From positions 124,001 through 188,000 of the IMG/VR virus record IMGVR_UViG_3300011223_000001: 64,000 nucleotides of DNA; one strand, written 5' to 3'. This document shows, in pieces, positions 4,674 to 60,164 of this stretch. This stretch comes from an uncultured virus (IMG/VR IMGVR_UViG_3300011223_000001) (taxonomy: Duplodnaviria > Heunggongvirae > Uroviricota > Caudoviricetes). The notes under the pieces are model-generated. The model worked only from the letters and a program-made list of their open reading frames with translations. It did no database searches and had not been told where the DNA came from. The first letter of the stretch is position 1. Every line of letters begins with the position of its first letter. The translations under genes were made by a program, and so were the position numbers.

Positions 4674-4692
4674 ATTCAGGTTCTCGTAGTGT

Positions 4693-4724
4693 CATAAAAG
4701 GAGCGCCGTAGCGCTCCTTTTATG
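4693..4724. terminator. Intergenic hairpin, probable terminator
   Basis: CATAAAAGGAGCGC-cgta-GCGCTCCTTTTATG. Confidence 0.7.
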
Positions 4725-4729
4725 CAGGG

Positions 4730-5374: not shown

Positions 5375-5423
5375 AAAGATCTCTCTTAGCTAAAGAAGGG
5401 GTCCGAAGACCCCCTCGTGGAGT

Positions 5424-8400
5424 TTACGCCGAAGCGCCGGTGGAACCTACCCAGCTGGAGCCGTCCCACAGCAGGATAACTACCGTGAAGGTAGCACCCA
5501 GTACAGGAGCAGCACCAGCGTTCCAGGTGATGCCGGTTGGCCAGGTGATTTGGCCAGCGTTACCGAAGACCTTAACCACCACGGTCATGGCAGCACCCGC
5601 ACCCGGTGGGTTCTTGAAGGTCAGGGTACGAGCCACCGAAGCGGACACGGTGTATACCTGCTGTGTGGCCAGGTCCATTTCCGTGGTAGTGGACGCCACC
5701 TTGAGGTTATAGCGATCCATCGATCTCAGCACCCAAGCCCCGTCCTTACGAACGTACTGCTTACCGTCCTTCGGTGCGTCTTCGCTGATGGCAGGTTCCA
5801 GCAGCTCTACCCAAGCCCCGTCCTTACGGCCGTGCATCTTGCCGTTTTTAGGGGCTTCACCGACCGCCACTTGCAGCACCGCCCACTGCCCGTCGATACG
5901 GCAGTATTGCTTGCCGTCCTTCGGTGCTTCCGCAACGTCAAGGATTTTCCATACGCCGTTTTGACGAACGTACTCCTTGTCGTCTTGCGGCGCGTCGTAG
6001 ACGTTACCACCGCCCAGGTAGCCCATCGGTGCCCACAGCACCTCGGTAGTCTTCTTGTAGAACTGAAGCGAAGAGCTGTCGAGGTAGTAGTCGTTACGAC
6101 GACCGTCGGTTGGTTGTGGCGGACGACCCAAGACAACCCACAGGGTACCTACATCACCCTTGTCACCCTTGTCACCTTTGAGGCCAGTGCCGGTATCACC
6201 CTTATCGCCTTTATCACCCTTGTCACCTTTCGGCCCTTGGATGATACCCAGGTCCTCGTAGGCAGCACCGGTCCAACCCCAGAAGTGCAGGTCGATCAGG
6301 TAGCCTTCGCCCAGCTTACCGTCTGCTGGCAGCTCCGAGGTACTGGCCTTCTTGCCCAGGATGCTGATGCCAGGACCCATCGGACCATCTGGACCCTCTG
6401 GACCGCGCACGTTACCCATGAACACGAACATCGTGCCATCATGGCTGTAGATGTCACCGGAACCGACGATGTAGGTATCGCCCTCGGCTGGGTTCTCCAG
6501 CGCCACAAGATCGCTGGCATCGTCCAGGTAACCTCTCGGCTTGAACGACTCACCACGGTCACCCTTGTCGCCGTCATCACCCTTATCACCCTTGAGCGAT
6601 GCGATGAACGAAGGCAGGTCAACGATGGAAGGATCGTTCTCCTTGGCCAGATCCAGTGCCGACTTACCATTCGGACCCATTGGGCCAGTCAGGTCACCTG
6701 CGTCGAACCACTCGTTGCCGTTCCAGATGTAGAGGGTGTTTTGTTCCCCATCTGGAATAACGTAGGCGTCGCCGATCACAGGGTTGGCGATCGACGCCAG
6801 TTCCGTGATGTTGTTCAGCGTACCGCGTACCGCGAGGCCTTGGCCGTCTTTACCATCCTTGCCCTTGAGCGAGGTGACCCATTCGGCCGCAGTGCCTTTG
6901 TAACCAGCATCGACCGCAACTTCGAAGGCCGACTTACCCGTGTCCCCTTTAACGGAGTCACCTTTGTCACCCTTGTCGCCTTTGATGGAATCGCCCTTAT
7001 CACCCTTATCGCCTTTTGCCCCTTTGAGGGTAGCCAGCCATTCAGGGATGGTGCCGACGAAGCCCGCCGCTACGGCCAGCTCATAGGTCGATTTACCGTC
7101 CTTGCCGTCTTCGCCTTTGTCACCGACGAATTTACCCAGGTCGTTCCACTTGCCGTTGAACCAGCTGTAGAGGTTCGACCCTACGACGATACTGTCGTAA
7201 TCGGTGGCCGATGCGGGCAGGTCTTCTACGGCATCGACGATGTCGATGACACGCAGGCCAGCGCCGTTGTCGCCCTTATCACCTTTATCGCCTTTGAGGC
7301 CAACACCGGTTGCGCCTTTGAGCGAGGCCATGAACACCGCTTCAGAGCCGGTGTTACCCAGTTGCTGCCAGAGCTCGTAAGCCGAGAGACCAGTCTCACC
7401 TTTCAGCGATTCCAACCACTCTGCGCGGGTACCGACGAAACCTTCGGCCAGAGCGATGGTGTAGTTGTCATCACCGTCATCACCCTTATCGCCTTTGATG
7501 GAATCGCCTTTGTCCCCTTTATCACCTTTGTCGCCCTTGGGACCTTTGATCGGACCGGCGTTGAACCAGTTCTCGCCTTCCCAGACGTAAACGTCGCCGC
7601 TGATCAGGTAGGCATCGGCGATGGCCGCATCGCTTGGCAATTCAGCAACATTGTTGACCGAACCGCGCAGTACAACCACGGCAGCCGAATCACCCTTGTC
7701 ACCCTTGTCACCTTTGATCGAATCGCCCTGATCGCCTTTGTCACCTTTACCACCCTTGATGGATTCCAGCCACTGCTTACGCGTGCCAGTGAACCCTTGG
7801 TCGATGGCGATGTCATAGGCGTCTTTGCCTTTGAGGCTCGCCAGCCACTGGGTGGTGGTGCCATTGAAGCCAAGCTGAACCGCGAGCTGGTAAGCCGACT
7901 TGCCGTCTGGACCGACCTGCCCGACTGGAGACCAGGTCTTGGTGTCCCAAACCCACATCATGTAATTGATGACGTAGGTATCGCCCGACTCGTTTTCCAG
8001 CATCGGCAGGTAGTCGGTCGAGGGGAAGCTACCCAGGATGCGCAAGCCGATACCATCGATGCCTTTAGGGCCCGACATATCGCCTGCGTCAACCCAGGTG
8101 CCTTCTACCACTACCCACAGGTGCTTCTCGATGAACCAGGCCAGACCGTTGGCCAAGTTACCGGCAGGTGGCAGGTCTTCGGTCGAGGCCAGCTCACCCT
8201 GAACGTTCAGAAGTGCGGCATCACCCTTGTCACCTTTATCACCCTTGTCACCCTTGACCGAGTCACCCTTTTCACCTTTGAGCGAAACCAGGTATTCGAT
8301 CAGGGTTCCTTCAAAGCCGTTTTCCTTGGCCAGTTCATAGGCATCCTTACCATTAACGCCATCCTCACCCTTGAGGCCGCCTGTTTCAGCGTCGACGAAT

Positions 8401-11905: not shown

Positions 11906-12340
11906 CTAGGGGGCGGGGGGTAGGTCATCTGTTTTGCCAAAGAACAAACCGATAACAAAGCGAAGTAGGCTGAAGGTCTCCGTGGTGACCAACTTGAGTA
12001 CTTCTGTAAGCTCTGGGCTTATTGTTGCATCACTGTAAGCCACCGCCATGGCTCCAATGACCACCACCACCGCAAGCAGACCCGAGCCCAGCAGTACAAT
12101 TTGCTTATACAGGTCAGTGCTACGAACAACCCCCAGTTGATGCTCCAACAGCTGCAAGCGTTTAGCCTCATTTGGAATCTTGTAAACCTGGCTCAACACA
12201 ATGTAGCCTGGGGTGTCCTTTGTGATGGTGCTCCCCTTCTTGCCCATTTGGGCCAACACCAGTGCTCGAATAGCGGCCGAGAACGGGCTAGTACCCAGTG
12301 GCTTATCGCCGAGGGAGATCAGTGCCTCCTGTAGCGTCAT
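11906..12340 (-). CDS. Membrane protein, holin candidate
   Basis: ATG at 12340 with GGAG RBS; hydrophobic segment IVLLGSGLLAVVVVIGAMAVAY and a second FSLLRFVIGLFF; lies between spanins and endolysin. Confidence 0.45.
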   Translation of the reverse strand: MTLQEALISLGDKPLGTSPFSAAIRALVLAQMGKKGSTITKDTPGYIVLSQVYKIPNEAKRLQLLEHQLGVVRSTDLYKQIVLLGSGLLAVVVVIGAMAVAYSDATISPELTEVLKLVTTETFSLLRFVIGLFFGKTDDLPPAP

Positions 12341-12725
12341 GATATTTCTCCAGCGTGGCCTTCTGTTCATCGTACCAGCCGTTCAGTGCTTTGATTTTGT
12401 CATTGCACAGTCCCACCTGGAGTGTTTGCTTGTCCCACTCCTCCTTCATCAGGAGGAACATCGCTTCCCATTCAGACTTCGCTTTAGGGTAACGAATGTA
12501 CGCCGTGAGGATGTCCGTTTCACTGGGCGGTGGGTTGGGTTTGCACTCCATGCGCATCACTAATGGGGGGACACGTAGCTCGATCGTGGTACGCTCGACA
12601 GTACGTACGCTGCATCCCTGCAACCAGCACAGCGATAGCAGCAGGATCAGGCCCATCAGCCACAGCAGCCACCTTGGGTGCCGCGGGCGCGGTTGGTTTA
12701 GGTCGGCTGGTAGTACGAACGGCAT
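12303..12725 (-). CDS. Rz1: o-spanin-like outer-membrane lipoprotein
   Basis: ATG at 12725 with AAGGAG RBS; signal RWLLWLMGLILLLSLCWLQG|C with lipobox; Pro-rich CKPNPPP; 5' half overlaps the i-spanin in another frame. Confidence 0.75.
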   Translation of the reverse strand: MPFVLPADLNQPRPRHPRWLLWLMGLILLLSLCWLQGCSVRTVERTTIELRVPPLVMRMECKPNPPPSETDILTAYIRYPKAKSEWEAMFLLMKEEWDKQTLQVGLCNDKIKALNGWYDEQKATLEKYHDATGGTDLPRR

Positions 12726-13068
12726 CGGGCTTCTCCTTGGGTGTGTTGGCAATTGGGGTGTTGGCATCGCGTGTAGCGAAATAAGCCTCGAGGTCTTGAG
12801 CCTGATAGACAGGTGCCTCGTTAAGCTTGAGTTCGCGTTCGAAGGTGTAATCGAACACGAGTTGGTCAGTCACGGCCGCGGCTTTCTTTTCCACGAGCAA
12901 AAAGCGCGACAGGTCCTCGGCCTGTTTGGTTAGCTGTTTGTTGTCCTCTTCCATGCGCCCGTGTCGTGTGAAAAACACCGCAGCGATAATCAGTGCCCCA
13001 ATTACACTGATTATTCCCACCCATTCAAACCAAGGAAGTTTTCCTAAAACTTTAAACATACTATTCAT
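12520..13068 (-). CDS. Rz: i-spanin-like inner-membrane protein
   Basis: ATG at 13068 with GAGG RBS; single N-terminal TM (WVGIISVIGALIIAAVFF), coiled coil, Pro-rich linker, C-terminal cysteines. Confidence 0.7.
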   Translation of the reverse strand: MNSMFKVLGKLPWFEWVGIISVIGALIIAAVFFTRHGRMEEDNKQLTKQAEDLSRFLLVEKKAAAVTDQLVFDYTFERELKLNEAPVYQAQDLEAYFATRDANTPIANTPKEKPDAVRTTSRPKPTAPAAPKVAAVADGPDPAAIAVLVAGMQRTYCRAYHDRATCPPISDAHGVQTQPTAQ

Positions 13069-13102
13069 GCCTCGGGGTATCAATGCGCCACTAGGGCTTA
13101 GC

Positions 13103-13690
13103 TCAACCACAGGGTGGTGTAAACCCTTCTAGGTGCAATTGCTGCATCAAGTGTAGGCCTACCGCCACGGCATCGACGCTGTGCTCATCGAGAGCCTCAA
13201 GGTCAACACCCCATCGGATTTCGGTGCGTTTTTTAAGGGCGCGGGTAACGTCCATTTTGTCTTTGAACTTACCCACTACCCCGGCTGCTTTTTTAGCCGT
13301 CATCGGATCGACTTGCAACAGGGGCATCGTTGGGTCGTATCGGTACAACACGTTGCGAATAACCGCCACACATTCCACCAAGGTCGCGTACGCATCGGCA
13401 AAGCGACCCTTGTAGTTCGATTCGCATATCACCAAATGAGGTTGGAAGTCCTCAAAGATTTCACTCAACGTGTCATCAAGGTGATAAAGACGGGCGATCC
13501 GATCGGTACCCATCTCGCGAACTTTGCTGTAGCGCTTATCGCTATCGGGAAACTTCAACGTGAACGCTGTCTTAAGGTCAAATTGAGGTGACTCGAAATC
13601 CCAGTACCACTGGGCAATACCCGTGTTGTAACTGCCAGGGTCTATGGACAAGACCCGCAGTGGCTCGTTACTGACCGGGAGCGTGAACAT
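13103..13690 (-). CDS. ruvC: RuvC-like Holliday junction resolvase
   Basis: VLSIDPG, LVICES, PMTAKKAAG and DEHSVDAVAVG match the RuvC catalytic pattern. Confidence 0.85.
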   Translation of the reverse strand: MFTLPVSNEPLRVLSIDPGSYNTGIAQWYWDFESPQFDLKTAFTLKFPDSDKRYSKVREMGTDRIARLYHLDDTLSEIFEDFQPHLVICESNYKGRFADAYATLVECVAVIRNVLYRYDPTMPLLQVDPMTAKKAAGVVGKFKDKMDVTRALKKRTEIRWGVDLEALDEHSVDAVAVGLHLMQQLHLEGFTPPCG

Positions 13691-14580
13691 CAGCTCAGCC
13701 AGGTCGCGCCGTTGAGGGTGTTCTGACCCAGCAGTGGTTCGGTGTTACCCACATCGAAGGCCAAGGTTGCCCCGTTGCTGGAATACCCGATGGCATGGTG
13801 GGTGGAGATGATCACGTTCAGTTGCGCGGCGATCACTTCGTTGAACAGGAAGCTACCGGCACCGCCGTTACTGGCTTGAACGTTGCGATCGACCCCGGAA
13901 GTAAAGCCCAGTTCGGAAATCACCGGCGAGCGCGATGAGCCGGTACGCACACGGTGGGCGTTGAGGATCTCCGCGATTTGGTTTTCAGTCAGGCGGATGC
14001 TGACAATTGCCGAGGCCGAGATGCTGGTCTCCGAACCGAGCACCACACCGCTGTTGGAGATCTCGGGGACCGGTGGGTTCAGGCGACTCGAGTCCGGTAC
14101 GAACGGATCGACCTTGACTTCGCCGTCAACCGTCGTCAGGGACTGAAGGGTTGTTTTGACCGCGGTGTAGTCCAGGCGCAGGGCGTAGTAGGCAATCTTG
14201 TTGACGCCGTTGTGTGGTTCGATCCGGCGCAGGGCGTATTGCTTGCGCAGTTCAGCCGGCAGGTCGTTGTCCAGGTCACGGATCACGATCGGGATCAGGC
14301 CGTAAAGACCGGCGTGTGAGGCGTCGTGCGGCACGGGTACGATTTCTTCAGAACCATCGTCAGCAACAATGGTCTTATGCCCGCGGTTACCAAAGACCAA
14401 ATACTTCATCTTCGGAATTTCACCGGCCGATGGCGCCACCCCGGCTTGAATACCCAGGCGTTCGTTCAAGGTGGTGTTTGCGATCAGGCTAAACGGCAAA
14501 CCCAGTTTCAAGCAGGTCTGCAAATACGCGCCATATGCCGTGCGGCAGACGTGGATGATCTGGTTGTCTACAGAAGACAT
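13690..14580 (-). CDS. Virion structural protein (phiKZ gp139-like, probably baseplate)
   Basis: 296 aa; NTTLNERLGI...YLVFGNRGH...IPIVIRDLDNDL...AYYA motifs recalled from conserved phiKZ-like virion proteins. Confidence 0.55.
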   Translation of the reverse strand: MSSVDNQIIHVCRTAYGAYLQTCLKLGLPFSLIANTTLNERLGIQAGVAPSAGEIPKMKYLVFGNRGHKTIVADDGSEEIVPVPHDASHAGLYGLIPIVIRDLDNDLPAELRKQYALRRIEPHNGVNKIAYYALRLDYTAVKTTLQSLTTVDGEVKVDPFVPDSSRLNPPVPEISNSGVVLGSETSISASAIVSIRLTENQIAEILNAHRVRTGSSRSPVISELGFTSGVDRNVQASNGGAGSFLFNEVIAAQLNVIISTHHAIGYSSNGATLAFDVGNTEPLLGQNTLNGATWLS

Positions 14581-43788: not shown

Positions 43789-44820
43789 ATGGGAGCAGCC
43801 ACAATGGCCGCAGCAGTGAATGTGCTTAAAGCACAACAGGTGTATCTGAAGCTCGTTGAGTGTGCGATGAACCAGACGTACACCAACTTCAATTACATCC
43901 ATGGCCTGATCCATGGTGAAGAACATTTAGACTCCTCGGAAGAGGAGTTCAATCAAACGGTAGCGGTTATTAGCTACGTGGCGGCTATGTGTCGTAAGTT
44001 ACATCAACCACGTTTGACCGTGTTGATTAACAGTTGCGCACATTCCGTTGGCGTGGGTCGAGGCTTCTACAAAGACCTGGGGGTCAAGATCGATTTGGCC
44101 GAGACACACTGGGGTGCTTTCTACTGCCTGATGCGCAGTGAATGCTATAATTACTTCGCTGACTTCTGTGCACACAACGAAGGGTTACAGCAGTACGTCT
44201 GGGATCGTATCATCGACGGACTCAGTCTTGAAACCGTCAACGGTGAGTTCATCAGCCAGGTGGTGCGTGAACAGACCGAACGCTTTGCCCAAGCCTCAAC
44301 CAGCACCGAGCAGATTTCGATTTCTCGCTCGAACCCACTGGAGCTCGGCTTCGTCCATCGTGAGTTCTTCACCCGCATGCGTGACTGGCTCGACCAAGCC
44401 TGTCGCTACAACGACCTCGGTCGACTGGTATGGGATATGGGGTTCTTGACCAAGGCAGCCAAATACCTGCGCCGTGAATTCACCATCACCGTACCGCTGG
44501 GCACGGAGCTCAACCTCTACGCTTTGACTCTGGCCAAAGAGCTGAAAGAAGGTCAGGCGTATTGCGCAACGATGGATGAGGTCGAGATGCTCACCGTCAG
44601 CAATATGGCCAGTGGTGAACCCAGCATCCAACATACGCCCGTCGAGAACGGCACACTCGTAGTGTCGCTAATTGACGATACCCGTATCAAGGCAGGGTGC
44701 GCTACTGTAAGTGATACCCATATCAATGCCACTGCACATCCCGAGAAGTGCACGTTCAAGTCCGCAGGTGGCGAAGGTTACACCCACGTGACTCTGCGTG
44801 TGTCGTTCCGTTTGAGCTAA
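43789..44820 (+). CDS. Hypothetical protein
   Basis: 343-aa ORF flanked by hairpins; no motif recognised. Confidence 0.6.
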   Translation: MGAATMAAAVNVLKAQQVYLKLVECAMNQTYTNFNYIHGLIHGEEHLDSSEEEFNQTVAVISYVAAMCRKLHQPRLTVLINSCAHSVGVGRGFYKDLGVKIDLAETHWGAFYCLMRSECYNYFADFCAHNEGLQQYVWDRIIDGLSLETVNGEFISQVVREQTERFAQASTSTEQISISRSNPLELGFVHREFFTRMRDWLDQACRYNDLGRLVWDMGFLTKAAKYLRREFTITVPLGTELNLYALTLAKELKEGQAYCATMDEVEMLTVSNMASGEPSIQHTPVENGTLVVSLIDDTRIKAGCATVSDTHINATAHPEKCTFKSAGGEGYTHVTLRVSFRLS

Positions 44821-44880
44821 CTGTACGGCCTGTCCTTCGGGACAGGCTTTATGCCGCCTACCACTTGACTCGAATAAATC

Positions 44881-44910
44881 TGAGAACTATATTGTCTTTG
44901 TGAATTAGGA
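44881..44910 (+). promoter_or_regulatory. Putative phage promoter, copy 2 of repeated motif
   Basis: TGAGAACTATATTGTCTTTGTGAATTAGGA. Confidence 0.6.
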
Positions 44911-44953
44911 ACAATAAGGTTCCTGATTACTATCCCTTTTAAGGAATAACCTC

Positions 44954-45340
44954 ATGTTGAAAGCCATCGCCCAAGCTATCGTTCTGCGCGCCATCAGTGT
45001 GATCATCGCTCTGTCTCTGGTCGCCGCTTACGCCAAATACAAAGAAGGTAAAGCCAAGGCCTTCAAGACTGCACGCCAAGCAGTGGTCGTCAACAACAAG
45101 GTCAAAGCCAAGACCAGTGTTGAGACCATGCAGGACCTGCTGGCACAACTGAACAACGATGTCACCATCCAACTGGCCATCGCCGCCGACGCTACCGTCG
45201 AGGAACGTCGTCAAATGAAAACCGCATTGGTGGCTCACTGGAGCGACTGTGGTGGTCAGATCGACAACGGCAGTGTCCGTGACATCTACCTCTCAGCGGT
45301 GCAAAACATCGCCAATACAGCTTTTGCTGAAAAAGCTTGA
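44954..45340 (+). CDS. Small N-anchored membrane protein, probably early
   Basis: AAGGA RBS; hydrophobic N-terminus AIVLRAISVIIALSLVAAYA. Confidence 0.65.
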   Translation: MLKAIAQAIVLRAISVIIALSLVAAYAKYKEGKAKAFKTARQAVVVNNKVKAKTSVETMQDLLAQLNNDVTIQLAIAADATVEERRQMKTALVAHWSDCGGQIDNGSVRDIYLSAVQNIANTAFAEKA

Positions 45341-45352
45341 TTGGAAAAAGTT

Positions 45353-45382
45353 TAAGAACTATATCGTCCTGGTGAATTGGGA
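45353..45382 (+). promoter_or_regulatory. Putative phage promoter, copy 3 of repeated motif
   Basis: TAAGAACTATATCGTCCTGGTGAATTGGGA. Confidence 0.6.
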
Positions 45383-45423
45383 GTCCTAAGCGACTCCCTG
45401 CACGTGTCTCTTGGAGAAAAAGA

Positions 45424-45780
45424 ATGAGCGTAAGCAACGTAGTCAAAGGTGCAATTACTGGCGCTGCAATCGGCCTGGTAACCTTCGGTACAATCCAGCT
45501 GGCTAAAGCCACTGGGCGTGGTCTGGCTAACACCGCGGCGCTGGGCTTTGCAGTCAAAGCGGTGGAAGGTGAGTTTGATGAAATCATCAAGCTGTCCCGC
45601 GAACACAACGACGTGCTGCAATGGCCGTCGGCTGCACGGTTGGCGCTGAATACGATCTGGGAAACCGCCACGTCCCACCTACCACAAGACCGTAAGTTCG
45701 CTGCTTGCCGTACCGCGCTCTTTGCTCGGTTCCAAAAGCGCATCGATGCGATCAACCGTAAAGACCACACCGCGGAGTAA
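45424..45780 (+). CDS. Small protein with hydrophobic Gly-rich N-terminus
   Basis: GGAG RBS; GAITGAAIGLVTFG. Confidence 0.65.
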   Translation: MSVSNVVKGAITGAAIGLVTFGTIQLAKATGRGLANTAALGFAVKAVEGEFDEIIKLSREHNDVLQWPSAARLALNTIWETATSHLPQDRKFAACRTALFARFQKRIDAINRKDHTAE

Positions 45781-45785
45781 CTGCC

Positions 45786-45935
45786 ATGAGCCGTTTCGTC
45801 AAAAAGCTTAAAGTCGCTAAACAAGAAACCGCCGAGATCACCAAGATGGCGTTCTCCGGTATCGGCGAAGGCATGAAGGTGGCCATCGGCTTGGCCCCTG
45901 TGATTGTCGTCCTGGCCGTTATCTCTCGCCTCTGA
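45786..45935 (+). CDS. 49-aa membrane peptide (below ORF-track cutoff)
   Basis: GGAG RBS; MSRFVKKLKVAKQETAEITKMAFSGIGEGMKVAIGLAPVIVVLAVISRL*. Confidence 0.6.
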   Translation: MSRFVKKLKVAKQETAEITKMAFSGIGEGMKVAIGLAPVIVVLAVISRL

Positions 45936-45949
45936 AAAGGAATCCCGTC

Positions 45950-46072
45950 ATGAAAGACAATGCCAAAGAAACAGCCCTGAAGATCGCCTACATCGCCGGC
46001 TTCACCATCGGCATCTCGGTTGTGGTTACCGTGGTAAACAAAACAGTCAACGCAGCTTTCAACGCACTTTGA
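45950..46072 (+). CDS. 40-aa membrane peptide (below ORF-track cutoff)
   Basis: AAGGA RBS; MKDNAKETALKIAYIAGFTIGISVVVTVVNKTVNAAFNAL*. Confidence 0.6.
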   Translation: MKDNAKETALKIAYIAGFTIGISVVVTVVNKTVNAAFNAL

Positions 46073-46140
46073 CCAATCCGCGTTACTCCCCTGTGTCATA
46101 CACACCCAAACCCAAGCCTACTAAAACGGAAGACACCATC

Positions 46141-46554
46141 ATGCAAAACAACGACCAAAACAACCCCAACGCCAACAACGAAGCTGGCAAGCCGATCGAC
46201 AACGTGGCACCGCTGGCCAAAGCCATCCACGAAAGCGCACAGCTTTCACCTGAAGTTCAGCAGGGCATCGACAACATCGCACGCTCCTGTGGTCAGGCTG
46301 CGGCCGAAGCCCTGAACATCGCCACGAAACCAACCCTGTCCGACCGCGTCAAGCGTGTCGGCGGGTCGGTGGGTAAAGTCGTCAAGTACGGCGCCATCGC
46401 GGCAGTTGCTGGCGGCCTCGGTTACATCGCTTACCGTGCCCTCAAAAGCACCCCTGCTGCGCAAGTAGCGGCCGCTGCGGCCGATGCTGGTGCCGAGGCT
46501 GCTACCGCTGTAGCGGACGCTGCCGCTGATGCTGTCCAAGCGGCGTTTCGCTGA
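46141..46554 (+). CDS. Small membrane protein
   Basis: ATG at 46141; TM-like YGAIAAVAGGLGYIAY; Ala-rich C-terminus. Confidence 0.65.
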   Translation: MQNNDQNNPNANNEAGKPIDNVAPLAKAIHESAQLSPEVQQGIDNIARSCGQAAAEALNIATKPTLSDRVKRVGGSVGKVVKYGAIAAVAGGLGYIAYRALKSTPAAQVAAAAADAGAEAATAVADAAADAVQAAFR

Positions 46555-46609
46555 TGCACCGGGGGTAGGCAACTACCCCCTTATCCCTACCCCACACCGA
46601 GCCCACGAC

Positions 46610-46729
46610 ATGAACATGACTCTGAAGAACCTGACCGCTGAAGAAAAGCAAGCCGCCGAACTCAACATCGCCTACGTTGAGTACCTGCTTGCACTGCGCA
46701 AGCGTAAGAAAGATGCTGAGTCCCGTTAA
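46610..46729 (+). CDS. 39-aa hypothetical peptide
   Basis: MNMTLKNLTAEEKQAAELNIAYVEYLLALRKRKKDAESR*; weak RBS; followed by a terminator. Confidence 0.45.
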   Translation: MNMTLKNLTAEEKQAAELNIAYVEYLLALRKRKKDAESR

Positions 46730-46743
46730 TGGGGGTTGGTGTA

Positions 46744-46784
46744 GGGTAGTCTGGGCTTCGGCCCGGGCTATCCTTTTTCTTTTT
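46744..46784 (+). terminator. Rho-independent terminator
   Basis: GGGTAGTCTGGGC-ttcg-GCCCGGGCTATCC followed by a T tract. Confidence 0.75.
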
Positions 46785-46817
46785 GTCGACATAAAGCCAC
46801 CCGAAGGTGGCCTTAGG

Positions 46818-47330
46818 TTATTCAGGTTTCTTACCACCCGGGCTAATACCCATCCGGCCAAAGAAGGTATCGCTCGTTTCCTGCACGACACCGATCTCGC
46901 CCTCACCGTCCACCAGCTCATGCTCACCCAGACGGTCTTCATCAAGCTGCGGTAGAATCGCCCGCGGCGTGCGCTCGGCAGTGGCCGATCCATCAGTTGC
47001 ACGCAACGAGAACGGGTTTTCGTTCTTGAGGGTCTTGATGACCTCCACCATGGCGTGAGCCACTTCGGCCGACGAGGCGCTGGTAGAGGCATCGATGGCG
47101 TTGCGTTTGTTGCTGATCTCGGTACCGTCGTGGTCTTTGAGAGCCGCCAACATGATCTTGATGTCATCATTGTCCTTGGGGACATCGCCTGTACGCGTAA
47201 GCTTAGACCTGACGATCTTACGCCGCAGGCGCTGGGAGTACGCTAGCGCCTGTTCATACGTCAGGTCTTGTTCTTCTTCCTGTGGCAGTTCAGGCTGCTC
47301 TACACTATGCGAATCAAGTGGTTCAAACAT
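46818..47330 (-). CDS. Conserved phiKZ-like hypothetical protein
   Basis: 170-aa acidic ORF with GAGG RBS. Confidence 0.55.
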   Translation of the reverse strand: MFEPLDSHSVEQPELPQEEEQDLTYEQALAYSQRLRRKIVRSKLTRTGDVPKDNDDIKIMLAALKDHDGTEISNKRNAIDASTSASSAEVAHAMVEVIKTLKNENPFSLRATDGSATAERTPRAILPQLDEDRLGEHELVDGEGEIGVVQETSDTFFGRMGISPGGKKPE

Positions 47331-47446
47331 GGTCTTTTGCCTCGAAGTAAAAGTCTACCAGCCTACCAGACTGTATATAACGGAATATTTTAAGCACCTA
47401 TATCATCGTTATGCTAGACAGTACAATGCCCTCTGGAGCCCACCTA

Positions 47447-47980
47447 ATGTTGTTAGGATCGTTGTTGCGACGCGTAGCGTCATGGCGTACAGCAAAACAC
47501 AAACTGAACGTCATCGAGGAAATAGAACGGTTAAGGGAGCTTGAAATCAGCGACCCTGGGAAACCTTTGGCATTTGCAAAGTTCTGGCGTGACGTCGGTG
47601 CTGAGATCTTCACAGCGATTCCGGTTGCTGAGCAGATCTGTTACCCTATCGTGAGAAATCACGAAACCATAGAGGAGATGGCTAACCTCTTGGATAAAAC
47701 GCTCCGGCTAATCGCTGAGGACGATTACGAGCACCTAGCCACTTACCTGTCGCGACGGCTTGAGACCAAGCATGAAAGTTCGCTTGCAGGCTATCTCACC
47801 GACAAAGACGGGTATCCGTTAGACAGTGTGGAGCAACACACGCACGTCTCTACCTTGCTGTTCAGTTTGGCTGCAACCTTAGACGGGATGGAGTCATACG
47901 AGTATCATCGCTTAGCAAATCACCTGTATGGTGAGTTACTGGCCGTGATCACACGCCTGCTGGAATACAAGCAACGGTAA
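47447..47980 (+). CDS. Hypothetical protein
   Basis: ATG at 47447 with GGAG RBS (the track extends it to 47411). Confidence 0.55.
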   Translation: MLLGSLLRRVASWRTAKHKLNVIEEIERLRELEISDPGKPLAFAKFWRDVGAEIFTAIPVAEQICYPIVRNHETIEEMANLLDKTLRLIAEDDYEHLATYLSRRLETKHESSLAGYLTDKDGYPLDSVEQHTHVSTLLFSLAATLDGMESYEYHRLANHLYGELLAVITRLLEYKQR

Positions 47981-54052: not shown

Positions 54053-54256
54053 TTAGACGCCGAGTTTTTTCGAGATGCGGGCGGTCAGTGCTTCGCGGAT
54101 GTCGTCATCCTGAAACAACTGGCCATTGAGGGTGGCTGACACTTCATCAGTGCCCAAGCAGTTCCGGATCACTTCAGTGCCCAGTTCCACCATCGACGCC
54201 AACGCTTGGGTGTTGTGCGCGTGGGCGATGTTAGGACTTACGTTTTGCTCTTGCAT
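54053..54256 (-). CDS. Small hypothetical protein
   Basis: ATG at 54256 with GAGGA RBS; overlaps the end of the beta gene. Confidence 0.55.
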   Translation of the reverse strand: MQEQNVSPNIAHAHNTQALASMVELGTEVIRNCLGTDEVSATLNGQLFQDDDIREALTARISKKLGV

Positions 54257-56810
54257 GGGTGGTTCCTCTATACACTGCGGCGACATGCTTGGACAGCGAT
54301 GCCATGTTCATGTTGGTGGTGGCGATGAGTTTAGGCGACAGTACCATTCGCTCCTCAACCGAGGTGTTGGCAAACTTCAATCCCAAAGGACGTCCGTCTT
54401 CCAAGTAGTTCTCACCTTTGAAGACCCCCGAAATGATGGTCTTCATCTGGTTGGCTACCACACCCTTGTCACCGATGCCGGCAGCCACATCGTGGTCGAT
54501 GTAGATACGGATGGCGAGGCTGTCTGGATCGATAGGTTCACCTTTGATGCGGAAGCTGAAATCCACTTCGCCCGTGAAGGGGGTTTCGCCCATGGCAAGT
54601 GCAAGCTCTTTCCGTTCTTTGTCGCCACGACGCGCCAGGCTTTGCAGCGATTCCGACATGTCTTCGAAATCACCGTGGTAGTAAACCTCGATTTTCGAGA
54701 CGGTCCCCACCACGCCTGCCTTAGGCGACTTGGCTTCGATCCGGCGCAAGGTATCCAGCGCGGTGTCGCCAAAGATCGGGTTGTTTGCCAGCTCAGGGTC
54801 TTCGATTCTACATAGAATTGTTTCCAAGTCTACGTGGTCACCGACTTTCACAAGAGCATCGACGACCTGATCGAAACGCACCACGATGTTGCGTGGCTCA
54901 CTGGCCTGGGTGTTGAACTGCTGAGCGACTTCCTCGGAAATCTCACAACCGTCTTCAAGCGTTGTGATCTTCTCCATGAACGCCACCGTGCACATGACGC
55001 CCATTTTCATGGAGACCTGTGTGGGGTTAAAGCGGTCAACTTGGAAGAACTTGCTGTTGTAGGAAAGGGTATCGCCAGCTTTGAACGCCATCCCTTCTTT
55101 AAGTGTTGTCGTCAGTGTGTGTGGGTAGGTGTGACCTGCGGCGACGCCATGGCGAAGACCCAGTGGTACGATCTCAACGGTACCGTCAGCGTAACGCACC
55201 TGAAGTGACCATTTGGTGATCTTTTCCACCACCCCATCTTGCGCAGCGGCGGTGGCGAAGTTCGCCGTGGTGCCTTGGCCAATGACCTGTTCCTCACCGG
55301 TACGCAGCGGCGGTACGGCGGCGCCATCACAGAAGATCGCTTGCTGCCACTGTACAGACACAAAACCGATGCGCTTCATGTCGTCGTGTTCAACACAAGG
55401 CGAGAGCAAGGCCGAGGAAGAGAGTAGCTTAGCAGGACCATCCCCTTCTTGCTTCGGTCGGGTCATGCCGCGCAGGTCGGTGATGTTAGCGTCTGGCGTC
55501 AGGTAGGCAATCACACCCACTTCACCGGAGTCCACAGTCGCTTCACCGGTAGTGCCTTCATCGTCTTTGTGGAAGACGCGGGTGCGCTCCACCATCGACA
55601 CCGAAGAACGACCACCGTCACCACGGTAGGTGTAGCCTTCCTGTTCACGCTGGTTGGCCATTGGGTTGGATTCTTCGACGATGCCGACCGAAGGGTCCTG
55701 TACCAATTTCTGCCACACGGCGTAGGGATTCAGCTCCACCCCGATCTCACCGGCCGACGAGCGGTTGTTAAAGGACTTCACCGCACGGGATAGTTCGCCA
55801 TACACCACACCCGAGAACCGTTCATAACCCCGGTACCGCATGAACTTAGGGTCGGTCTCTTTGGGGCAGTAGTCGGTCATCAACAGCTCAACTGCACGCA
55901 CCAGCAACTTGGAGAACTCGGTGGGTTCACCCATTTGCAGGAGCAGCCCTTCTGTGATCGGATCGACCCAGGCAGTCTTGAGTGCATCGAGTTCACGCAG
56001 GTAGCGCACACCGAGCCCCGCTTCTTCAAGCAGGCGGTAGTAGACGTCTTTCTTGTCAAAGTCCCAGACCGAGAACTTCTTCAAGCTGCGGTGGTAACGG
56101 TTCAGGCCGTTGAGGATCATCATCGCACGAGTGTCGGTGGTGGACAGGACAATTACCTCGTCCTGGAACACCAGCGTGTATGCATCCTCGGGCAGCTGCA
56201 AACGCTCACCCCGTGGGTGGCGACTGTGCTCGATACCCAGTTCTTTGATGAGGTTGCTCAGGCCATAGTAGTACGCCAGGGTAAAGCCCACGGGTACTAC
56301 TTTGTTCTGAACCGTCATCTCAGCGACTTCACCCGGGGCGCGGGTGGTGTCCAACTGGATAACGTCTGTCAAGCTGCCGATAGCATCCTGACCATCCGGT
56401 GTGTTGATGTACAGCACGTTGTTGGTGTCGATACAGATGGCTTGTGTGCCGACCACTGCCAGAACGACCTGACCTGCCAACTCGCAGGTTTTGACGTCGA
56501 TACCGTGTTCAGCAAACCACGCTTCACGATTGGCGTAATCGAAGTAGAACTGGTAATCTCCCGCTTTGAAGGAGGTAACCTGTTTGGCCAGCATCGAGTA
56601 GGTGCGAGGCAGTTGCAGCTCTTCTTGGAACACGTTACCCAGCTTCAGCTCGGTGATGCTCGTGTCGTCTGCCTTAAGCGCTGTGGCTTTGATGGTGGTA
56701 AGCAACCACCGCTCATAGTCGTCTGTCTTACGCTTAGAGCGATCGACAAAGACCTTATTAAAGTAACTGGTCAGTGCCACACGGAAGTCATTGACTTTGC
56801 GGATTGGTAG
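54231..56810 (-). CDS. rpoB: Virion RNAP beta subunit (phiKZ gp178-like), exon 2
   Basis: GDGGRS, DSGEVG, HDDMKR, WQQA...PLRTG, EDGCEIS and GIGDKGVVANQMKT are beta-subunit motifs; begins LPIRK right after the intron's terminal G. Confidence 0.88.
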   Translation of the reverse strand, partial: LPIRKVNDFRVALTSYFNKVFVDRSKRKTDDYERWLLTTIKATALKADDTSITELKLGNVFQEELQLPRTYSMLAKQVTSFKAGDYQFYFDYANREAWFAEHGIDVKTCELAGQVVLAVVGTQAICIDTNNVLYINTPDGQDAIGSLTDVIQLDTTRAPGEVAEMTVQNKVVPVGFTLAYYYGLSNLIKELGIEHSRHPRGERLQLPEDAYTLVFQDEVIVLSTTDTRAMMILNGLNRYHRSLKKFSVWDFDKKDVYYRLLEEAGLGVRYLRELDALKTAWVDPITEGLLLQMGEPTEFSKLLVRAVELLMTDYCPKETDPKFMRYRGYERFSGVVYGELSRAVKSFNNRSSAGEIGVELNPYAVWQKLVQDPSVGIVEESNPMANQREQEGYTYRGDGGRSSVSMVERTRVFHKDDEGTTGEATVDSGEVGVIAYLTPDANITDLRGMTRPKQEGDGPAKLLSSSALLSPCVEHDDMKRIGFVSVQWQQAIFCDGAAVPPLRTGEEQVIGQGTTANFATAAAQDGVVEKITKWSLQVRYADGTVEIVPLGLRHGVAAGHTYPHTLTTTLKEGMAFKAGDTLSYNSKFFQVDRFNPTQVSMKMGVMCTVAFMEKITTLEDGCEISEEVAQQFNTQASEPRNIVVRFDQVVDALVKVGDHVDLETILCRIEDPELANNPIFGDTALDTLRRIEAKSPKAGVVGTVSKIEVYYHGDFEDMSESLQSLARRGDKERKELALAMGETPFTGEVDFSFRIKGEPIDPDSLAIRIYIDHDVAAGIGDKGVVANQMKTIISGVFKGENYLEDGRPLGLKFANTSVEERMVLSPKLIATTNMNMASLSKHVAAVYRGTTHARAKRKS

Positions 56811-57185
56811 CATCCCAATCCAAAATGGACCATATCTTCACCCGCCACTGCTGTGGGTAGGGTGCCTACCATTTCGGCTCTCCTTCACAGGAGAGGTGAT
56901 TTTATTCACGACATTTGCATGTCCCTACTCTACTCGCTTTAATCACTTAAAGTGACCACCCGGTTTTACACGGATGTCATTAGTCGCTGCCGCGATGTAG
57001 CTTTCGATGGCCTCTGAGCACACCCCATGGCTGTCGCTTTAGGGGCTTCGCTGCGCCGGTTGTGCCTGTCAATGACGTTTTTACCATACCTGTCACTTCC
57101 ATTACTGGGACAGGTGTTACACTGGGTTTCCCCGTGTAAGTGGTAGTCATTGCATACGGCAAGTTCCCGCAATTAGGTAGGTTTT

Positions 57186-58349
57186 CTAGTGAAGTATTTC
57201 TACCTCACGCGGACCATGTGGTTTACTAATGGTGATACTCTCATCAAAAACATGACCTTTGTAACGCAGTGCCATCTCAAGGGCTATCTCTATCCCGCTG
57301 TTGTCCATCTGCTGGTATACCAACTCCAACAGATAGTAACCACGTTCTTTGGCTAGCGCTCGTTTAGCTTCGTCGTTCTTGATGGTTTCTCGAAAATACA
57401 ACTCACCGCCAAATAATGCGACCGGTTTAAAATGCTGATGTCCATGATGCTCGATGAGGATGTTGTACTCAGGGATGTAGAAATCAAAACGATACCGGTA
57501 TGGCACCACCTTAAACTCTTGGATAAACCCTATCCCGTGCTTCTCTAGAAAAACACGTATCCGTGATTCACCTTTCGATTCTTTGCATCTGGCGCACCCG
57601 CCTCTGGAGGAGACATGTCCGTTTGGTGTTATCCAAAAGGGCCCATGCTTATCACAAACAAGCTCAACCTTTGTTTTACTGGTTACATAGACAACCCGAC
57701 TATAGTCGTATTTATCGCCGTGAACCAATGTGGCCTGTTTAATGAATTCCTCTACACCGAGTCGATTGCCACTGTTGTGGCACTGTTTACAACCATGTCC
57801 ATCTAGGTGTGACCTAGGTAACTGCTGATACGGACCGTGGCTTGGGCAGACTATCGTAACTGGTAATGACCTTTTGTCATAAACCACGAGAGAGTAATCG
57901 TATTTATCACCATGTCGCTGTTGCGATGCAGCAATAAACTTCTCACGTGTAGAACGTTTTCGTTCTCTAAAACACCGACTACACCCCACCTTCTTCCCAT
58001 AATGCTCATATGGCGTCACGGTGAAACAACCATGGGTAGGGCAGATGATATTTACTGCGGTGTTTGTATCGACAAATTCAATTTGACTGTAGTCGTATTG
58101 ATTTCCATGGGCCGCATTGGCCCGTTGGATAAAGTCTTCTTCGGTTACTCTAGAATTCCCGCAACGCGAACACCCAAAAGGCGATCGCAAAAAGTACTGC
58201 GCATTAATTTCAAAGTCACCATGCACCTTGCATGCGATGGTTACATTGTGGCGCCGCCCTCTGTAAACAGTATTCGTATAAATGAATTTTTCACCGAATT
58301 TGTTTCTAGCTAGTTCAATGAAATTTTCAGTGGTGAGTCTTGCAACCAT
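57186..58349 (-). CDS. Intron-encoded endonuclease: four CxxH...CxxC zinc repeats plus a C-terminal DUF559/Vsr-like PD-(D/E)xK domain
   Basis: Repeats like HGDKYDYSxVxY...VxIxCxxHGxF...GCxxC; C-terminal SKGE...QEF...RFDFYIPEYNILIEHHGHQHF; ATG at 58349 with GGAGG RBS; AT-richer than the flanks. Confidence 0.85.
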   Translation of the reverse strand: MVARLTTENFIELARNKFGEKFIYTNTVYRGRRHNVTIACKVHGDFEINAQYFLRSPFGCSRCGNSRVTEEDFIQRANAAHGNQYDYSQIEFVDTNTAVNIICPTHGCFTVTPYEHYGKKVGCSRCFRERKRSTREKFIAASQQRHGDKYDYSLVVYDKRSLPVTIVCPSHGPYQQLPRSHLDGHGCKQCHNSGNRLGVEEFIKQATLVHGDKYDYSRVVYVTSKTKVELVCDKHGPFWITPNGHVSSRGGCARCKESKGESRIRVFLEKHGIGFIQEFKVVPYRYRFDFYIPEYNILIEHHGHQHFKPVALFGGELYFRETIKNDEAKRALAKERGYYLLELVYQQMDNSGIEIALEMALRYKGHVFDESITISKPHGPREVEILH

Positions 58350-58357
58350 TGTAAACC

Positions 58358-58383
58358 CCTCCACGGTTATTATACCATAGAGG
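58358..58383 (-). promoter_or_regulatory. Hairpin sequestering the endonuclease RBS
   Basis: Minus-strand CCTCTATGGT-ataata-ACCGTGGAGG is a 10-bp stem (two G.U pairs) with the GGAGG in its 3' arm. Confidence 0.65.
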
Positions 58384-58391
58384 TGCTTTTA

Positions 58392-60164
58392 ATCCGCACG
58401 CTGCCATTTCATTCGGTACAGCACGCCGTTAGACATGAACCGACCGTCTTTGTCGACGACAGGTACACGGAAGCGGACGGTGGTTTGACGACCCCGGATT
58501 GGCTTGATGGTAACCGAATGGATTTCGTAGTGGTTCATGGCGTCACGCACCACTTCCACTTTGTAATCCTTAACGGCGACACCTTGTTTCTGAATCGCGA
58601 TGACCGCGTTCAGGATGTCTTTGCGCATCAGGTTGGTAACGTAGGCCTTGGTGATGCCCTTGAGCTTTGCATTGAGCATGCTCTTGTCGATGATGGTCGA
58701 CTTGTCCGGGTAACTCTGCTGCGCAGGCAGCTGGGTGTCTTCCGGGGCGATCTTCATCGCGTCTTCGATGGTCTTCCCGGTCCCGTAGGGATCAGGTAGC
58801 TCTTTAAAGCTCAGGGAGTCCTCGATAGCGCGATTCATGGAGCGCGCCGTGATGACCCCTGTCTGCGACATCTCAAACGCTTTAAGGGCGATGGGGGCGA
58901 CGTTAGGGTCACCTAGGAGCTGGTCGGCAAAAGACGTCGGGGTGTCTTCCGGGTCTTCGTCGGTGATGTCATCGATGGTGGAACCGATCGGATCGAGAAG
59001 CTCATCGTCATCGTCGGTGGCCAGCGTTTCAATCTTACCCGCCTCAGGTGCTTGTGGGACTTCGAAAGTATCCACGTCCAGCCCAGAGAACAAGTCCAAC
59101 CCATTATCCGCGGCATTGCCTGCTCCAGCCACTTCACTGCGGTCTTCGTCGTCTTCGTCCTCGGCCACGGTGGCTGAATCGTCAGTAACGGTCTTGGCAG
59201 TGATCTTGGTTTTGGCAACCGGCGTCTTCTCTTCCTCACCCAGGTTCAGGAACAGCCCTTCGCTGTCTTCGTCCAGTTCGGTGCCTTCCAGCTGGAACTG
59301 GTGCAGGCCGCGCAGCAAGCGAATGAACGCCATCTGAAGTTGACTGCCCTCGATCCCACCGGGGTTGAGGGTTTGCTCCTTGCCGTTCTCGTCTTTGACT
59401 TTCTCTTTACGCCAACTGTCAAGCAAGCCAAGGTTCAGAACAAAGAAGTGAGTACGCAGGCGGAACAGGAAGTTGATATGACCATAGGCGTCTTTGGGGA
59501 TCACCGCCATCTTTGACCTGGCCCGGTCCGGGCCGAGCCACAGGTACAGATCATGCGCCGTCAGGTGCGAGGCTGTGGGGAACAAATCCAAGCTGGCCTG
59601 CGTAATGCCGCCAGTCAAGAGGTCCCACTTGGACTTGGCCGGAATCGAGTTAGGTACTTCGAACTCGATGTACTGGTTCCAGCGGAAACGAGCATGGGCT
59701 TCGACCACGTGTTTCCAGAAGGTGTCGGCGTTGTTGTTCCAGCGGTAGTACGTGGCCTTGTATGAGGCAATGTACTTGTACAGTGGGTTGAGCATGTTGA
59801 AGTTGACCACCAACATGCTTTTCTCGTTGATGGTCAGCGCCTCATCCTTGCGCAGCGGACGGAACGTGCGGTTGACCCGGCGAAAGTCTGCTTCAAGGGT
59901 ATTGGGGTTAACCACAGTGCGCCTTGGATTACCCAGGCTGCCTTCAAGGTGTTTTACGTGTTCAATGAACAGGCGCCCACCTTCGGTGTTGAACAACCGG
60001 TCCTGTGGGGAAGGCCCCACGATCGCCCCGTTGTCGCGGTAGTACTGGTAGATCGAACTCAAAGGTAGATGGAGCTTGCCCATCGGTGCCATACGCGGTT
60101 TGAGCAGCTGTGCGCGCTGCCGTAACCCGTATTGCTGGTAAAACTTCGGCTGTTTATAGCGCAT
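58392..60164 (-). CDS. rpoB: Virion RNAP beta subunit (phiKZ gp178-like), exon 1
   Basis: ATG at 60164 overlaps the beta-prime stop; ends ...VPVVDKDGRFMSNGVLYRMKWQRAD at the 5' splice site. Confidence 0.82.

Follow-up and report, generated by a model that had tools for sequence, protein, structure and literature searches.

Introduction

One described counterpart of the element reported here is PhiPA3 gp210 (Science 2024; PMC11620839), the homing endonuclease of a group I intron in the virion RNA polymerase (RNAP) beta gene of a chimallin-encoding Pseudomonas jumbo phage, for which the available text reports a demonstrated competitive role (PMC11620839). The present locus lies in a 64,000-nucleotide (nt) stretch of DNA (hereafter the window, to which all coordinates refer unless noted) from the uncultured virus record IMGVR_UViG_3300011223_000001, where positions 58391-56811 of the minus strand form a 1581-nt group I intron within the gene for the virion RNAP beta subunit, orthologous to phiKZ gp178. 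The two systems share the host gene, the intron class, a homing endonuclease, and a chimallin-encoding phage. They differ in the enzyme, which in PhiPA3 is described as an HNH nicking enzyme (PMC11620839) and here has a Vsr/EDxHD fold, and in the site: the PhiPA3 intron follows the residue that aligns with phiKZ gp178 D1072 (EHDD^PKR, with the caret at the insertion point), whereas the intron described here follows D594 (QRAD^xPIRK). A preliminary description of the window, made from the letters of the sequence, had suggested that this could be a case independent of gp210, with a different nuclease family and a different target; the different family and the different site stand, while the different target does not, since both introns interrupt the same gene.

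The architecture of the enzyme also has recent precedent. Zinc-module and Vsr proteins were described in 2025 as a large, unrecognised outgroup of the EDxHD/Vsr homing enzymes, distributed in introns of group I as well as of group II (PMC12350094). According to the available text, those enzymes consist of three to five ~60-residue domains related to DUF723, followed by a ~100-residue domain distantly related to Vsr/EDxHD, and they occur in self-splicing introns of jumbo-phage virion RNAP genes and have thousands of unannotated relatives, all of which recalls the present case. Unlike the enzyme described here, they are placed in the gene for the N-terminal part of virion RNAP beta', whereas this one is found in the beta gene (gp178), in the loop of the P1 helix, with a tail that overlaps the internal guide sequence. 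I-Bth0305I, the EDxHD prototype (PDB 3R3P; PMC3239194), is similar in its fold, the order of the conserved acidic residues and histidines, the D-to-H spacing of 17, and its location in a phage group I intron. It shares 16% identity and no HMMER-level match with the nuclease here, and it differs further in binding DNA through two NUMOD-2/helix-turn-helix motifs instead of zinc repeats and in an open reading frame (ORF) that interrupts P5 of an intron in recA (PMC3239194).

Two other systems bear on the layout of the intron. In the T4 td intron, the I-TevI ORF likewise extends into the ribozyme core, and its translation is restrained in a manner that protects folding and splicing (PMC3984707, citing Gibb and Edgell, 2010); I-TevI is a GIY-YIG enzyme in a different loop, whereas the overlapped elements here are the guide and P2, and the control is one suggested by structure prediction. 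In fungal mitochondrial introns, such as Hypomyces aurantius cox3-i2, the P1 loop also hosts an endonuclease gene (PMC4964425), although these are LAGLIDADG enzymes in organellar genes, and we found no covariation series from ORF-less to ORF-bearing members reported in the available text. A limited literature search, which cannot establish absence in print, returned no phage example of a P1-loop ORF. Every component of the present locus has precedent, and its mechanism is that of an ordinary homing intron whose ORF occupies the P1 loop. We consider it very probable that this Noxifer-like phage carries a mobile, IA-like group I intron in which the nuclease gene occupies the P1 loop, the overlap of the ORF with the guide is incidental, and translation is restrained by a hairpin.

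Results and Discussion

An Intron in the Virion RNAP Beta Gene

The upstream reading frame (...YRMKWQRAD) terminates after GAU (58394-58392) at an in-frame UAA immediately following the 5' splice site, and the downstream frame opens at 56813, with LPIRKVNDF... read from 56810. When 58392 is joined to 56810 the reading frame of the host gene is exactly restored, and the resulting protein aligns without gaps, at 82% identity and with an identical junction (...YRMKWQRADLPIRKVNDF), to gp195 of Pseudomonas phage Noxifer, an uninterrupted 1454-residue "RNA polymerase beta subunit". The alignment starts at M25 of the listed ORF, the probable start of exon 1. The splice junction is fixed by the intron-less homologs and by a contig from run X1 that joins the exons at the same point, and the terminal G is present at the 3' splice site. 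Over its full length (residues 1-1451) the spliced protein is 45.9% identical to phiKZ gp178, and the gene order (tail fibre, second RNAP subunit, RNAP beta gene, small ORF, virion proteins, head protease) matches the phiKZ neighbourhood; the host gene therefore encodes the virion RNAP beta subunit. A homolog of chimallin, 38% identical to phiKZ gp54 (E 5e-98), is also encoded in this genome. The features of the locus are listed in Table 1.

Table 1. Coordinates of the intron, its exons, its RNA elements, and the encoded nuclease in the window (aa, amino acids).
Feature	Position	Strand	Remarks
Exon 1, virion RNAP beta gene	58392..60164	-	Probable start MRYKQPKF; ends ...KWQRAD, GAU at 58394-58392
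Group I intron, 1581 nt	56811..58391	-	Starts UAAAAG; ends with omega-G at 56811 (...GGGAUG)
Hairpin just inside the 5' splice site	58353..58388	-	First 70 intron nt fold at a predicted -20.8 kcal/mol
Homing-endonuclease ORF, 387 aa plus stop	57186..58349	-	ATG 58349, TAG 57188-57186; in the P1 loop (L1 = 1177 nt)
Four tandem DUF723-type zinc modules	57579..58346	-	Residues 2-65, 65-128, 130-192, 194-257; each C-x2-H...C-x2-C
Vsr/EDxHD-fold nuclease domain	57252..57587	-	Residues 255-366; candidate catalytic E261, D289, H301, H306, D326
Internal guide sequence GUCCGC, 3' strand of P1	57209..57214	-	Pairs with exon GCGGAU (58397-58392); covariation in 20/20 loci
P2 hairpin GUGAGGUA-GAAA-UACUUCAC, GNRA loop	57189..57208	-	Eight pairs, each showing double changes in 4-8 sequences
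Ribozyme core, P3 to P9	56811..57185	-	Includes additional hairpins between P7 and P3's 3' strand
Hairpin whose loop contains the 3' splice site	56801..56824	-	Intron tail GGAUUGG pairs with exon-2 CCAAUCC (columns 465-477)
Exon 2 (LPIRKVNDF...), stop included	54231..56810	-	Alignments to Noxifer gp195 and phiKZ gp178

Related Introns Occupy the Same Site

We compared 20 distinct loci: the window, 18 viral contigs (L142-L159) located by an 18-nt core motif, and contig L086, which was found, along with L085 (the same contig as L153), by a protein-guided metagenome scan. When the final 100 residues of exon 1 were used as a tblastn query, 20 of the 21 oriented sequences (the window, the 18 viral contigs, and L085) were matched; all 20 alignments extend to the query's last residue, with ...Q(R/K/I)(A/G/V)D as the end of exon 1. 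The sequence without a match, L086, contains only 15 nt of exon 1, with the same GCGGAU end.

These introns differ in what the P1 loop (L1) contains. In seven ORF-less loci L1 spans 13-181 nt, and in 11 loci with ORFs of 372-491 aa it spans 1165-1553 nt. Two loci hold remnants: a 159-aa ORF that comprises the nuclease domain only (L146; L1 of 942 nt) and a 67-aa ORF (L149; L1 of 317 nt). Since the ORF-less members have an ordinary short P1 hairpin, the ORF-bearing members carry the ORF in the P1 loop.

The same arrangement, with the intron unannotated, is present in cultured Vibrio phages (vB_VmeM-Yong MS32 and relatives, and vB_pir03). In Yong MS32 (L163; MK308677.1, 941-6358), the record divides the RNAP beta gene into two 'hypothetical proteins' (941-2329 and 3818-6358), which flank the endonuclease (2346-3434), and a 48-aa coding sequence (CDS; 3584-3730) that is called inside the ribozyme core is probably spurious; this intron seems to lack P2. 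For vB_pir03, the middle ORF is listed as "Homing endonuclease" with a 3R3P match, and the word "intron" is absent from the available text of the paper (PMC7765460).

The Ribozyme Core

Identification of the element as a putatively self-splicing group I intron, known here from its DNA sequence, draws on both profile matching and covariation. The Rfam group I model (RF00028) matches the window intron at 43.7 bits (E 4.8e-9; 45.3 bits in a second scan), short of the gathering score of 50; the homologous intron in L085 exceeds this cut-off at 59.2 bits, and that in L086 scores 44.8 bits. In the 20-sequence family alignment, 56 of the 87 predicted consensus pairs show compensatory changes. Three covarying hairpins fall in the interval bounded by P7 (5' strand) and P3 (3' strand), at alignment columns 248-269, 277-300, and 301-321. 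Subgroup IA is defined by the elements P7.1/P7.2 between P7 and P3', and judged by these extra hairpins the intron may be called IA-like.

The stem that encloses the 3' splice site draws its exon-2 arm from bases +4 to +10 (CCAAUCC), which are also the P-I-R codons. It folds in 19 of the 20 loci with differing sequences, and thus the intron tail and exon 2 covary. No P10 was apparent on inspection by eye only, in that the bases 5' of the guide show no convincing complementarity to the start of exon 2. An RNAalifold pairing of guide GG.CC with the 3' strand of P7 (columns 8-12 with 449-453) was rejected as an artefact of the omitted exon strand.

P1 Is Closed Across the Endonuclease Gene

The end of exon 1, CGUGCGGAU (58400-58392), is complementary to GUCCGCGUG (57214-57206), 1177 nt into the intron, and nine contiguous pairs are possible (six Watson-Crick and three G.U, including the U.G at the splice site). 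The preliminary description had taken these as a 9-bp guide pairing about 1180 nt downstream, within the last codons of the nuclease. In a single sequence such a pairing is not significant: a 9-bp run occurs somewhere in the intron in 640 of 2000 dinucleotide shuffles, and nine intron sites are able to form at least 6 bp with the exon end when G.U is allowed. The related introns, however, carry the signal that the single sequence lacks. At the aligned position just 5' of P2/P3, P1 pairs at 6/6 positions in 20/20 loci, a result equalled in 0 of 10000 permutations. Seven exon/guide combinations are observed (GCGGAU/GUCCGC, GCGGAU/GUUCGC, GGGGAU/GUCCCC, GGCGAU/GUCGCC, GUGGAU/GUCCAC, GGUGAU/GUCACC, and GGAGAU/GUCUCC), with Watson-Crick compensation at positions -4 and -5 and an invariant U.G at the splice site; the cultured Vibrio phage Yong MS32 adds a 21st locus, with GUGGAU/GUCCAC. 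The three remaining bases, GUG (57208-57206), belong to the covarying P2, whose base they form with CAC (57191-57189; columns 15-17 with 35-37), and P1 is therefore 6 bp rather than 9. Thus the guide lies where it had been placed, with the U.G at the splice site, and its extent is shorter than had been supposed. On these comparative grounds the observation is real, and it now rests on covariation rather than on one pairing.

The abundance of complementary stretches raises the alternative that the true guide is located nearer the 5' splice site, which would put the ORF in P2 or a later loop. With G.U allowed, eight other intron sites pair over 6-8 bp with the exon end, among them GUUCGCGU (intron nt 221) and GUCCGUAU (intron nt 557). 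All eight fall within the ORF and are without a counterpart in the ORF-less relatives, in which the guide is found directly before P2/P3 at a distance of 13-75 nt from the splice site; given also that the aligned guide covaries with the exon in 20/20 loci, we regard this alternative as extremely improbable.

The Nuclease Tail Overlaps the Guide and P2

The ORF ends ...H-G-P-R-E-V-E-I-L-H, in which GGU CCG CGU encodes G379-P380-R381 within the guide region, in agreement with the earlier placement; P2 is translated as the last codons, and the stop UAG (57188-57186) directly follows it. Such read-through is a minority trait: the ORF runs past the guide in only 4 of the 11 ORF-bearing loci (the window, L151, L153/L085, and L086), and in the other seven it stops 11-36 nt before the guide. 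Nor do the overlapping members share a frame. In L151, L153, and L086 the sequence is read ...UGG UCC GCG UAG (W-S-A-stop), while two extra bases just upstream in the window phage give GGU CCG CGU GAG... through P2 to the UAG at 57188. The RNA string AUGGUCCGCGU is conserved and its translation is not, and residues 379-387 have a predicted local distance difference test score (pLDDT) below 50 in the AlphaFold2 (AF2) model, a predicted disordered tail. The conserved RNA, the two frames, and the disordered tail together imply that constraint on the RNA governs these bases and that the protein tail would be dispensable. From the comparison of sequences and the predicted structure, the overlap of the ORF tail with the guide and P2 looks incidental. 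The same three observations (termination before the guide in 7/11, two frames, and a disordered tail) speak against two earlier proposals, namely that the guide bases are jointly constrained as protein code and ribozyme, and that translation through the guide is coupled to splicing as a selected device.

The second of these proposals merits consideration in its fuller form, in which ribosomes finishing the ORF would unwind the guide and P2, such that nuclease synthesis and splicing are coupled or mutually exclusive. The overlap is physically real and is kept in the window, L151, L153/L085, and L086, and probably also in P0039, P0045, and P0049, which have GPR tails. There is also a documented case of ORF/core overlap with tight translational control in I-TevI (PMC3984707), and the conserved hairpin that buries the Shine-Dalgarno sequence (see below) fits a conflict between translation and folding. 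Nevertheless, seven of the 11 ORF-bearing relatives terminate before the guide, and the overlapping groups use different frames (W-S-A-stop versus G-P-R-E...), leaving no protein constraint visible in a tail that is predicted to be disordered. Furthermore, given the chimallin homolog, most splicing would come before translation if ribosomes are excluded from the site of transcription as they are in phiKZ. We consider a selected device unlikely and retain the incidental overlap.

A Hairpin at the 5' Splice Site

An equivalent stable hairpin of different sequence is present in 13/13 loci with an ORF or a remnant, including both L146 and L149. In the window, its 3' arm holds GGAGG (58362-58358), 8 nt upstream of the nuclease ATG, and Shine-Dalgarno-like purines are found on the 3' arm wherever an ORF is present. 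By analogy with T4 I-TevI, and as far as the predicted fold indicates, this burial of the Shine-Dalgarno sequence probably keeps ribosomes off the unspliced RNA.

The loop and 5' arm of the hairpin (58367-58380, minus strand) contain CUAUGGUAUAAU. In the two closest relatives the hairpin loop again contains UAUA(A/G)U, and in several others UAUG is found in the 5' arm; these are short motifs. The late promoters of phiKZ have a TATG core. Were transcription to begin within the hairpin, the Shine-Dalgarno sequence would be released, as it is at the late promoter of T4 I-TevI.

A Zinc-Module Array Joined to a Vsr-Like Nuclease

The N-terminal two-thirds of the protein is occupied by the tandem modules, each of ~63 aa, which Pfam recognizes as DUF723 (PF05265; 45.4 bits against a cut-off of 20.9, in three stretches). 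The residues C39, H42, C58, and C61 are invariant in 48 modules from 11 ORFs, with four or five modules per ORF, and the four CxxH...CxxC repeats reported in the preliminary description are borne out by both the sequence and this alignment. Repeated zinc domains of the DUF723/CapR type were discussed in 2023 as modular DNA binders of phage homing enzymes (PMC10448857), and the idea of a modular DNA-binding array, already in print (PMC10448857, PMC12350094), is plausible here by analogy.

The AF2 model of the nuclease (pLDDT 92.1) has a Vsr-like fold, as had been anticipated. Its nuclease domain aligns by VIA-align best to I-Bth0305I (3r3p_B; Z 12.1, root-mean-square deviation 2.6, 97/98 residues), to Vsr (1cw0_A; Z 11.3), and to 3hrl_A (Z 10.3), and Foldseek assigns a probability of 1.00 to 1cw0, 1vsr, and 3r3p. 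Four of the candidate catalytic residues (E261, D289, H306, and D326) show conservation of at least 90% across 40 sequences, and H301 occupies a variable x position. The active site of I-Bth0305I comprises E170, D196, N208, H213, and D222 (PMC3239194); the residue order is the same, and the D-to-H spacing of 17 equals that from D196 to H213. The motif IEHHG (residues 299-303) had been viewed as a departure from IEYDG. The relatives have IEYQG, IEFHG, or IEHQG, and the D of 'DG' is conserved nowhere in the family, so that IEHHG is normal for it.

Pfam identifies no HNH (checked at E 0.1), GIY-YIG, or LAGLIDADG family in the protein, consistent with the original assessment. The best PHROG match (phrog_559; 9.5e-66) carries the label 'HNH endonuclease', and the C-terminal PHROGs go under the names "homing endonuclease" and "intron encoded nuclease"; no HNH structure occurs among the fold matches of either the whole protein or one zinc module. 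The sequence searches (see below) found no similarity to Vsr, for which PMC3239194 gives a threshold of BLASTP < 1e-3, and this assigns the nuclease to the 'outgroup' of PMC12350094.

This is a very large family, which takes in 7225 of 8000 scored candidates and, in viral contigs, 525 of the 591 matches to a pattern. A single-protein search for close nuclease relatives in viral contigs gave no match, and a query built from an alignment did find relatives. Our literature search found, in the available texts, no biochemical assay of any homing enzyme that combines zinc modules with a Vsr fold.

An Intron-Less Allele and the Putative Target Site

The site is polymorphic for the presence of the intron. 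A 2192-nt contig from run X1 covers 56661-56807 and 58391-58700 with differences at 1/147 and 2/310 positions, and joins the exons as GAU^UUG CCA without the intron, with flanks ~99% identical to those of the window. Relative to the window exons, CGU is changed to CGG (-7) and CUA to UUG (+1, +3), which amounts to three synonymous changes within 10 nt of the site, with at most two further differences in ~450 flanking nt. Noxifer (GCUGAC^UUGCCU) likewise has UUG at the site, and C instead of U at -1, and exon 2 begins with C in 19 of the 21 intron-plus alleles. On sequence evidence, this pattern fits co-conversion or target escape. Contigs from runs X9, X10, and X16 contain only diverged relatives of the ribozyme core and exon.

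Proposed Mechanism

The data above show where the intron begins and ends, the covariation of P1, P2, and the core, the folds of the protein domains, and the presence/absence polymorphism; from them we infer cleavage, homing, and translational control along the following lines. The 6-bp P1 (exon GCGGAU with guide GUCCGC, and U.G at the cleavage site) defines the 5' splice site. A homing-endonuclease gene would have been inserted into the P1 loop of an ancestrally short-looped intron, leaving the two strands of P1 1177 nt apart. The zinc-module array would bind DNA, and the C-terminal Vsr/EDxHD-fold nuclease would cut the intron-less allele near GCGGAU^CUACCA; this cut would drive homing. The tail over the guide and P2 arose, on this reading, by a local frameshift and stop-codon drift in one sub-clade, and the hairpin that buries the Shine-Dalgarno sequence would restrain translation of the unspliced RNA.

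Several points weigh against this reading. The RF00028 score of the window intron itself falls below the gathering score. The overlap is kept in at least four loci, and probably in three more whose proteins end ...GPRITEM, so some benefit is possible. The X1 contig could in principle be the spliced transcript of a variant rather than intron-less DNA. At the sequence level, neither phmmer nor a 40-sequence profile searched against PDB sequences links the nuclease to Vsr or 3R3P (the matches, to 3kbg at E 0.34 and 2p22 at E 0.24, are only those expected by chance), Pfam returns nothing for the nuclease domain alone at E 10, and NCBIfam gives nothing meaningful. The equivalences to the I-Bth0305I active site are candidate ones, drawn on the model from residue order, spacing, and the overlap of aligned ranges and fold rather than from residue-level superposition. 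For a single zinc module (AF2 pLDDT 88), the best PDB match has Z 3.9 and none has Z of at least 5; no known fold can be named from this model, which does not thereby establish that an HNH or treble-clef match is absent. DNA binding by the modules would be a property borrowed from the CapR-type domains in the literature.

Decay of the nuclease is evident within the family, in the 159-aa fragment of L146, the 67-aa ORF of L149, and the seven loci without an ORF, and this suggests an alternative in which the endonuclease of the window is inactive, the intron is inherited vertically, and the ORF is heading to decay at a late stage of the homing cycle. The difference between IEHHG and the DUF559-type motif named in the preliminary description would agree with such a state. 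The ORF, however, is full length, with four intact C/H/C/C sets, E261, D289, H306, and D326 in place, and a high-confidence model (pLDDT 92.1), and relatives at 51-55% identity keep the same length and motifs. The contig without the intron, with ~99% identical flanks and three clustered synonymous differences, further suggests recent gain, loss, or target escape. An inactive enzyme is accordingly improbable, and a mobile intron with an intact nuclease gene remains our preferred interpretation.

A more far-reaching interpretation, which we advance tentatively and think somewhat doubtful, is that the intron is a second, independent intron-borne weapon in the gene that hosts gp210, with a four-module zinc array that can be re-targeted and with the X1 changes representing escape selected by the nuclease. 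The P1/guide overlap would be cost-free if nascent RNA were shielded from ribosomes. A phage nucleus, if formed as in phiKZ, would probably separate nascent RNA from ribosomes; with ribosomes kept away, an ORF in P1 over the guide would carry no splicing cost, and for this reason the unusual layout would persist in this lineage.

Other Insertions in This Genome and in Related RNAP Genes

A second group I intron, apparently ORF-less, is present in the same genome outside the window (G000:C1:47684-48008; RF00028, 80.7 bits). Its start lies at the end of an ORF of 426 aa (46438-47718) that closely follows the chimallin homolog (44608-46272) on the downstream side, a location that corresponds to the position of phiKZ gp55 (an RNAP subunit) and gp56 (an HNH endonuclease). 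In phiKZ (L161), a 357-aa ORF, gp179 (12661-13734), and an unannotated 500-nt gap (12159-12660) lie between the virion RNAP genes gp180 and gp178. In other cultured jumbo phages (Serratia phage 2050HW, Klebsiella phage phiKp_32, and Aeromonas phage PS1), inserts of ~0.4-1.4 kb divide the exon-2 part of the RNAP beta gene into two pieces, and one insert bears the annotation 'putative endonuclease'; the RNAP beta gene thus has further insertion sites.

Significance

The 21 introns at this one site, with seven ORF-less members, two decaying remnants, and 12 full nucleases (the cultured Vibrio phage included), constitute a natural series that shows an endonuclease gene colonising and then leaving the P1 loop, and an ORF creeping into the ribozyme. 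The intron-plus allele, the near-identical intron-less allele, and the cultured intron-less phage Noxifer provide test substrates for a very large and apparently unassayed enzyme family. The annotation of cultured Vibrio jumbo phages can also be corrected, given that the same intron is unannotated in them, the RNAP beta gene is split in their records, and a probably spurious CDS is called in the core. Should this nuclease have the role in mixed infections that gp210 has, competition between these phages would repeatedly target the virion RNAP beta gene.

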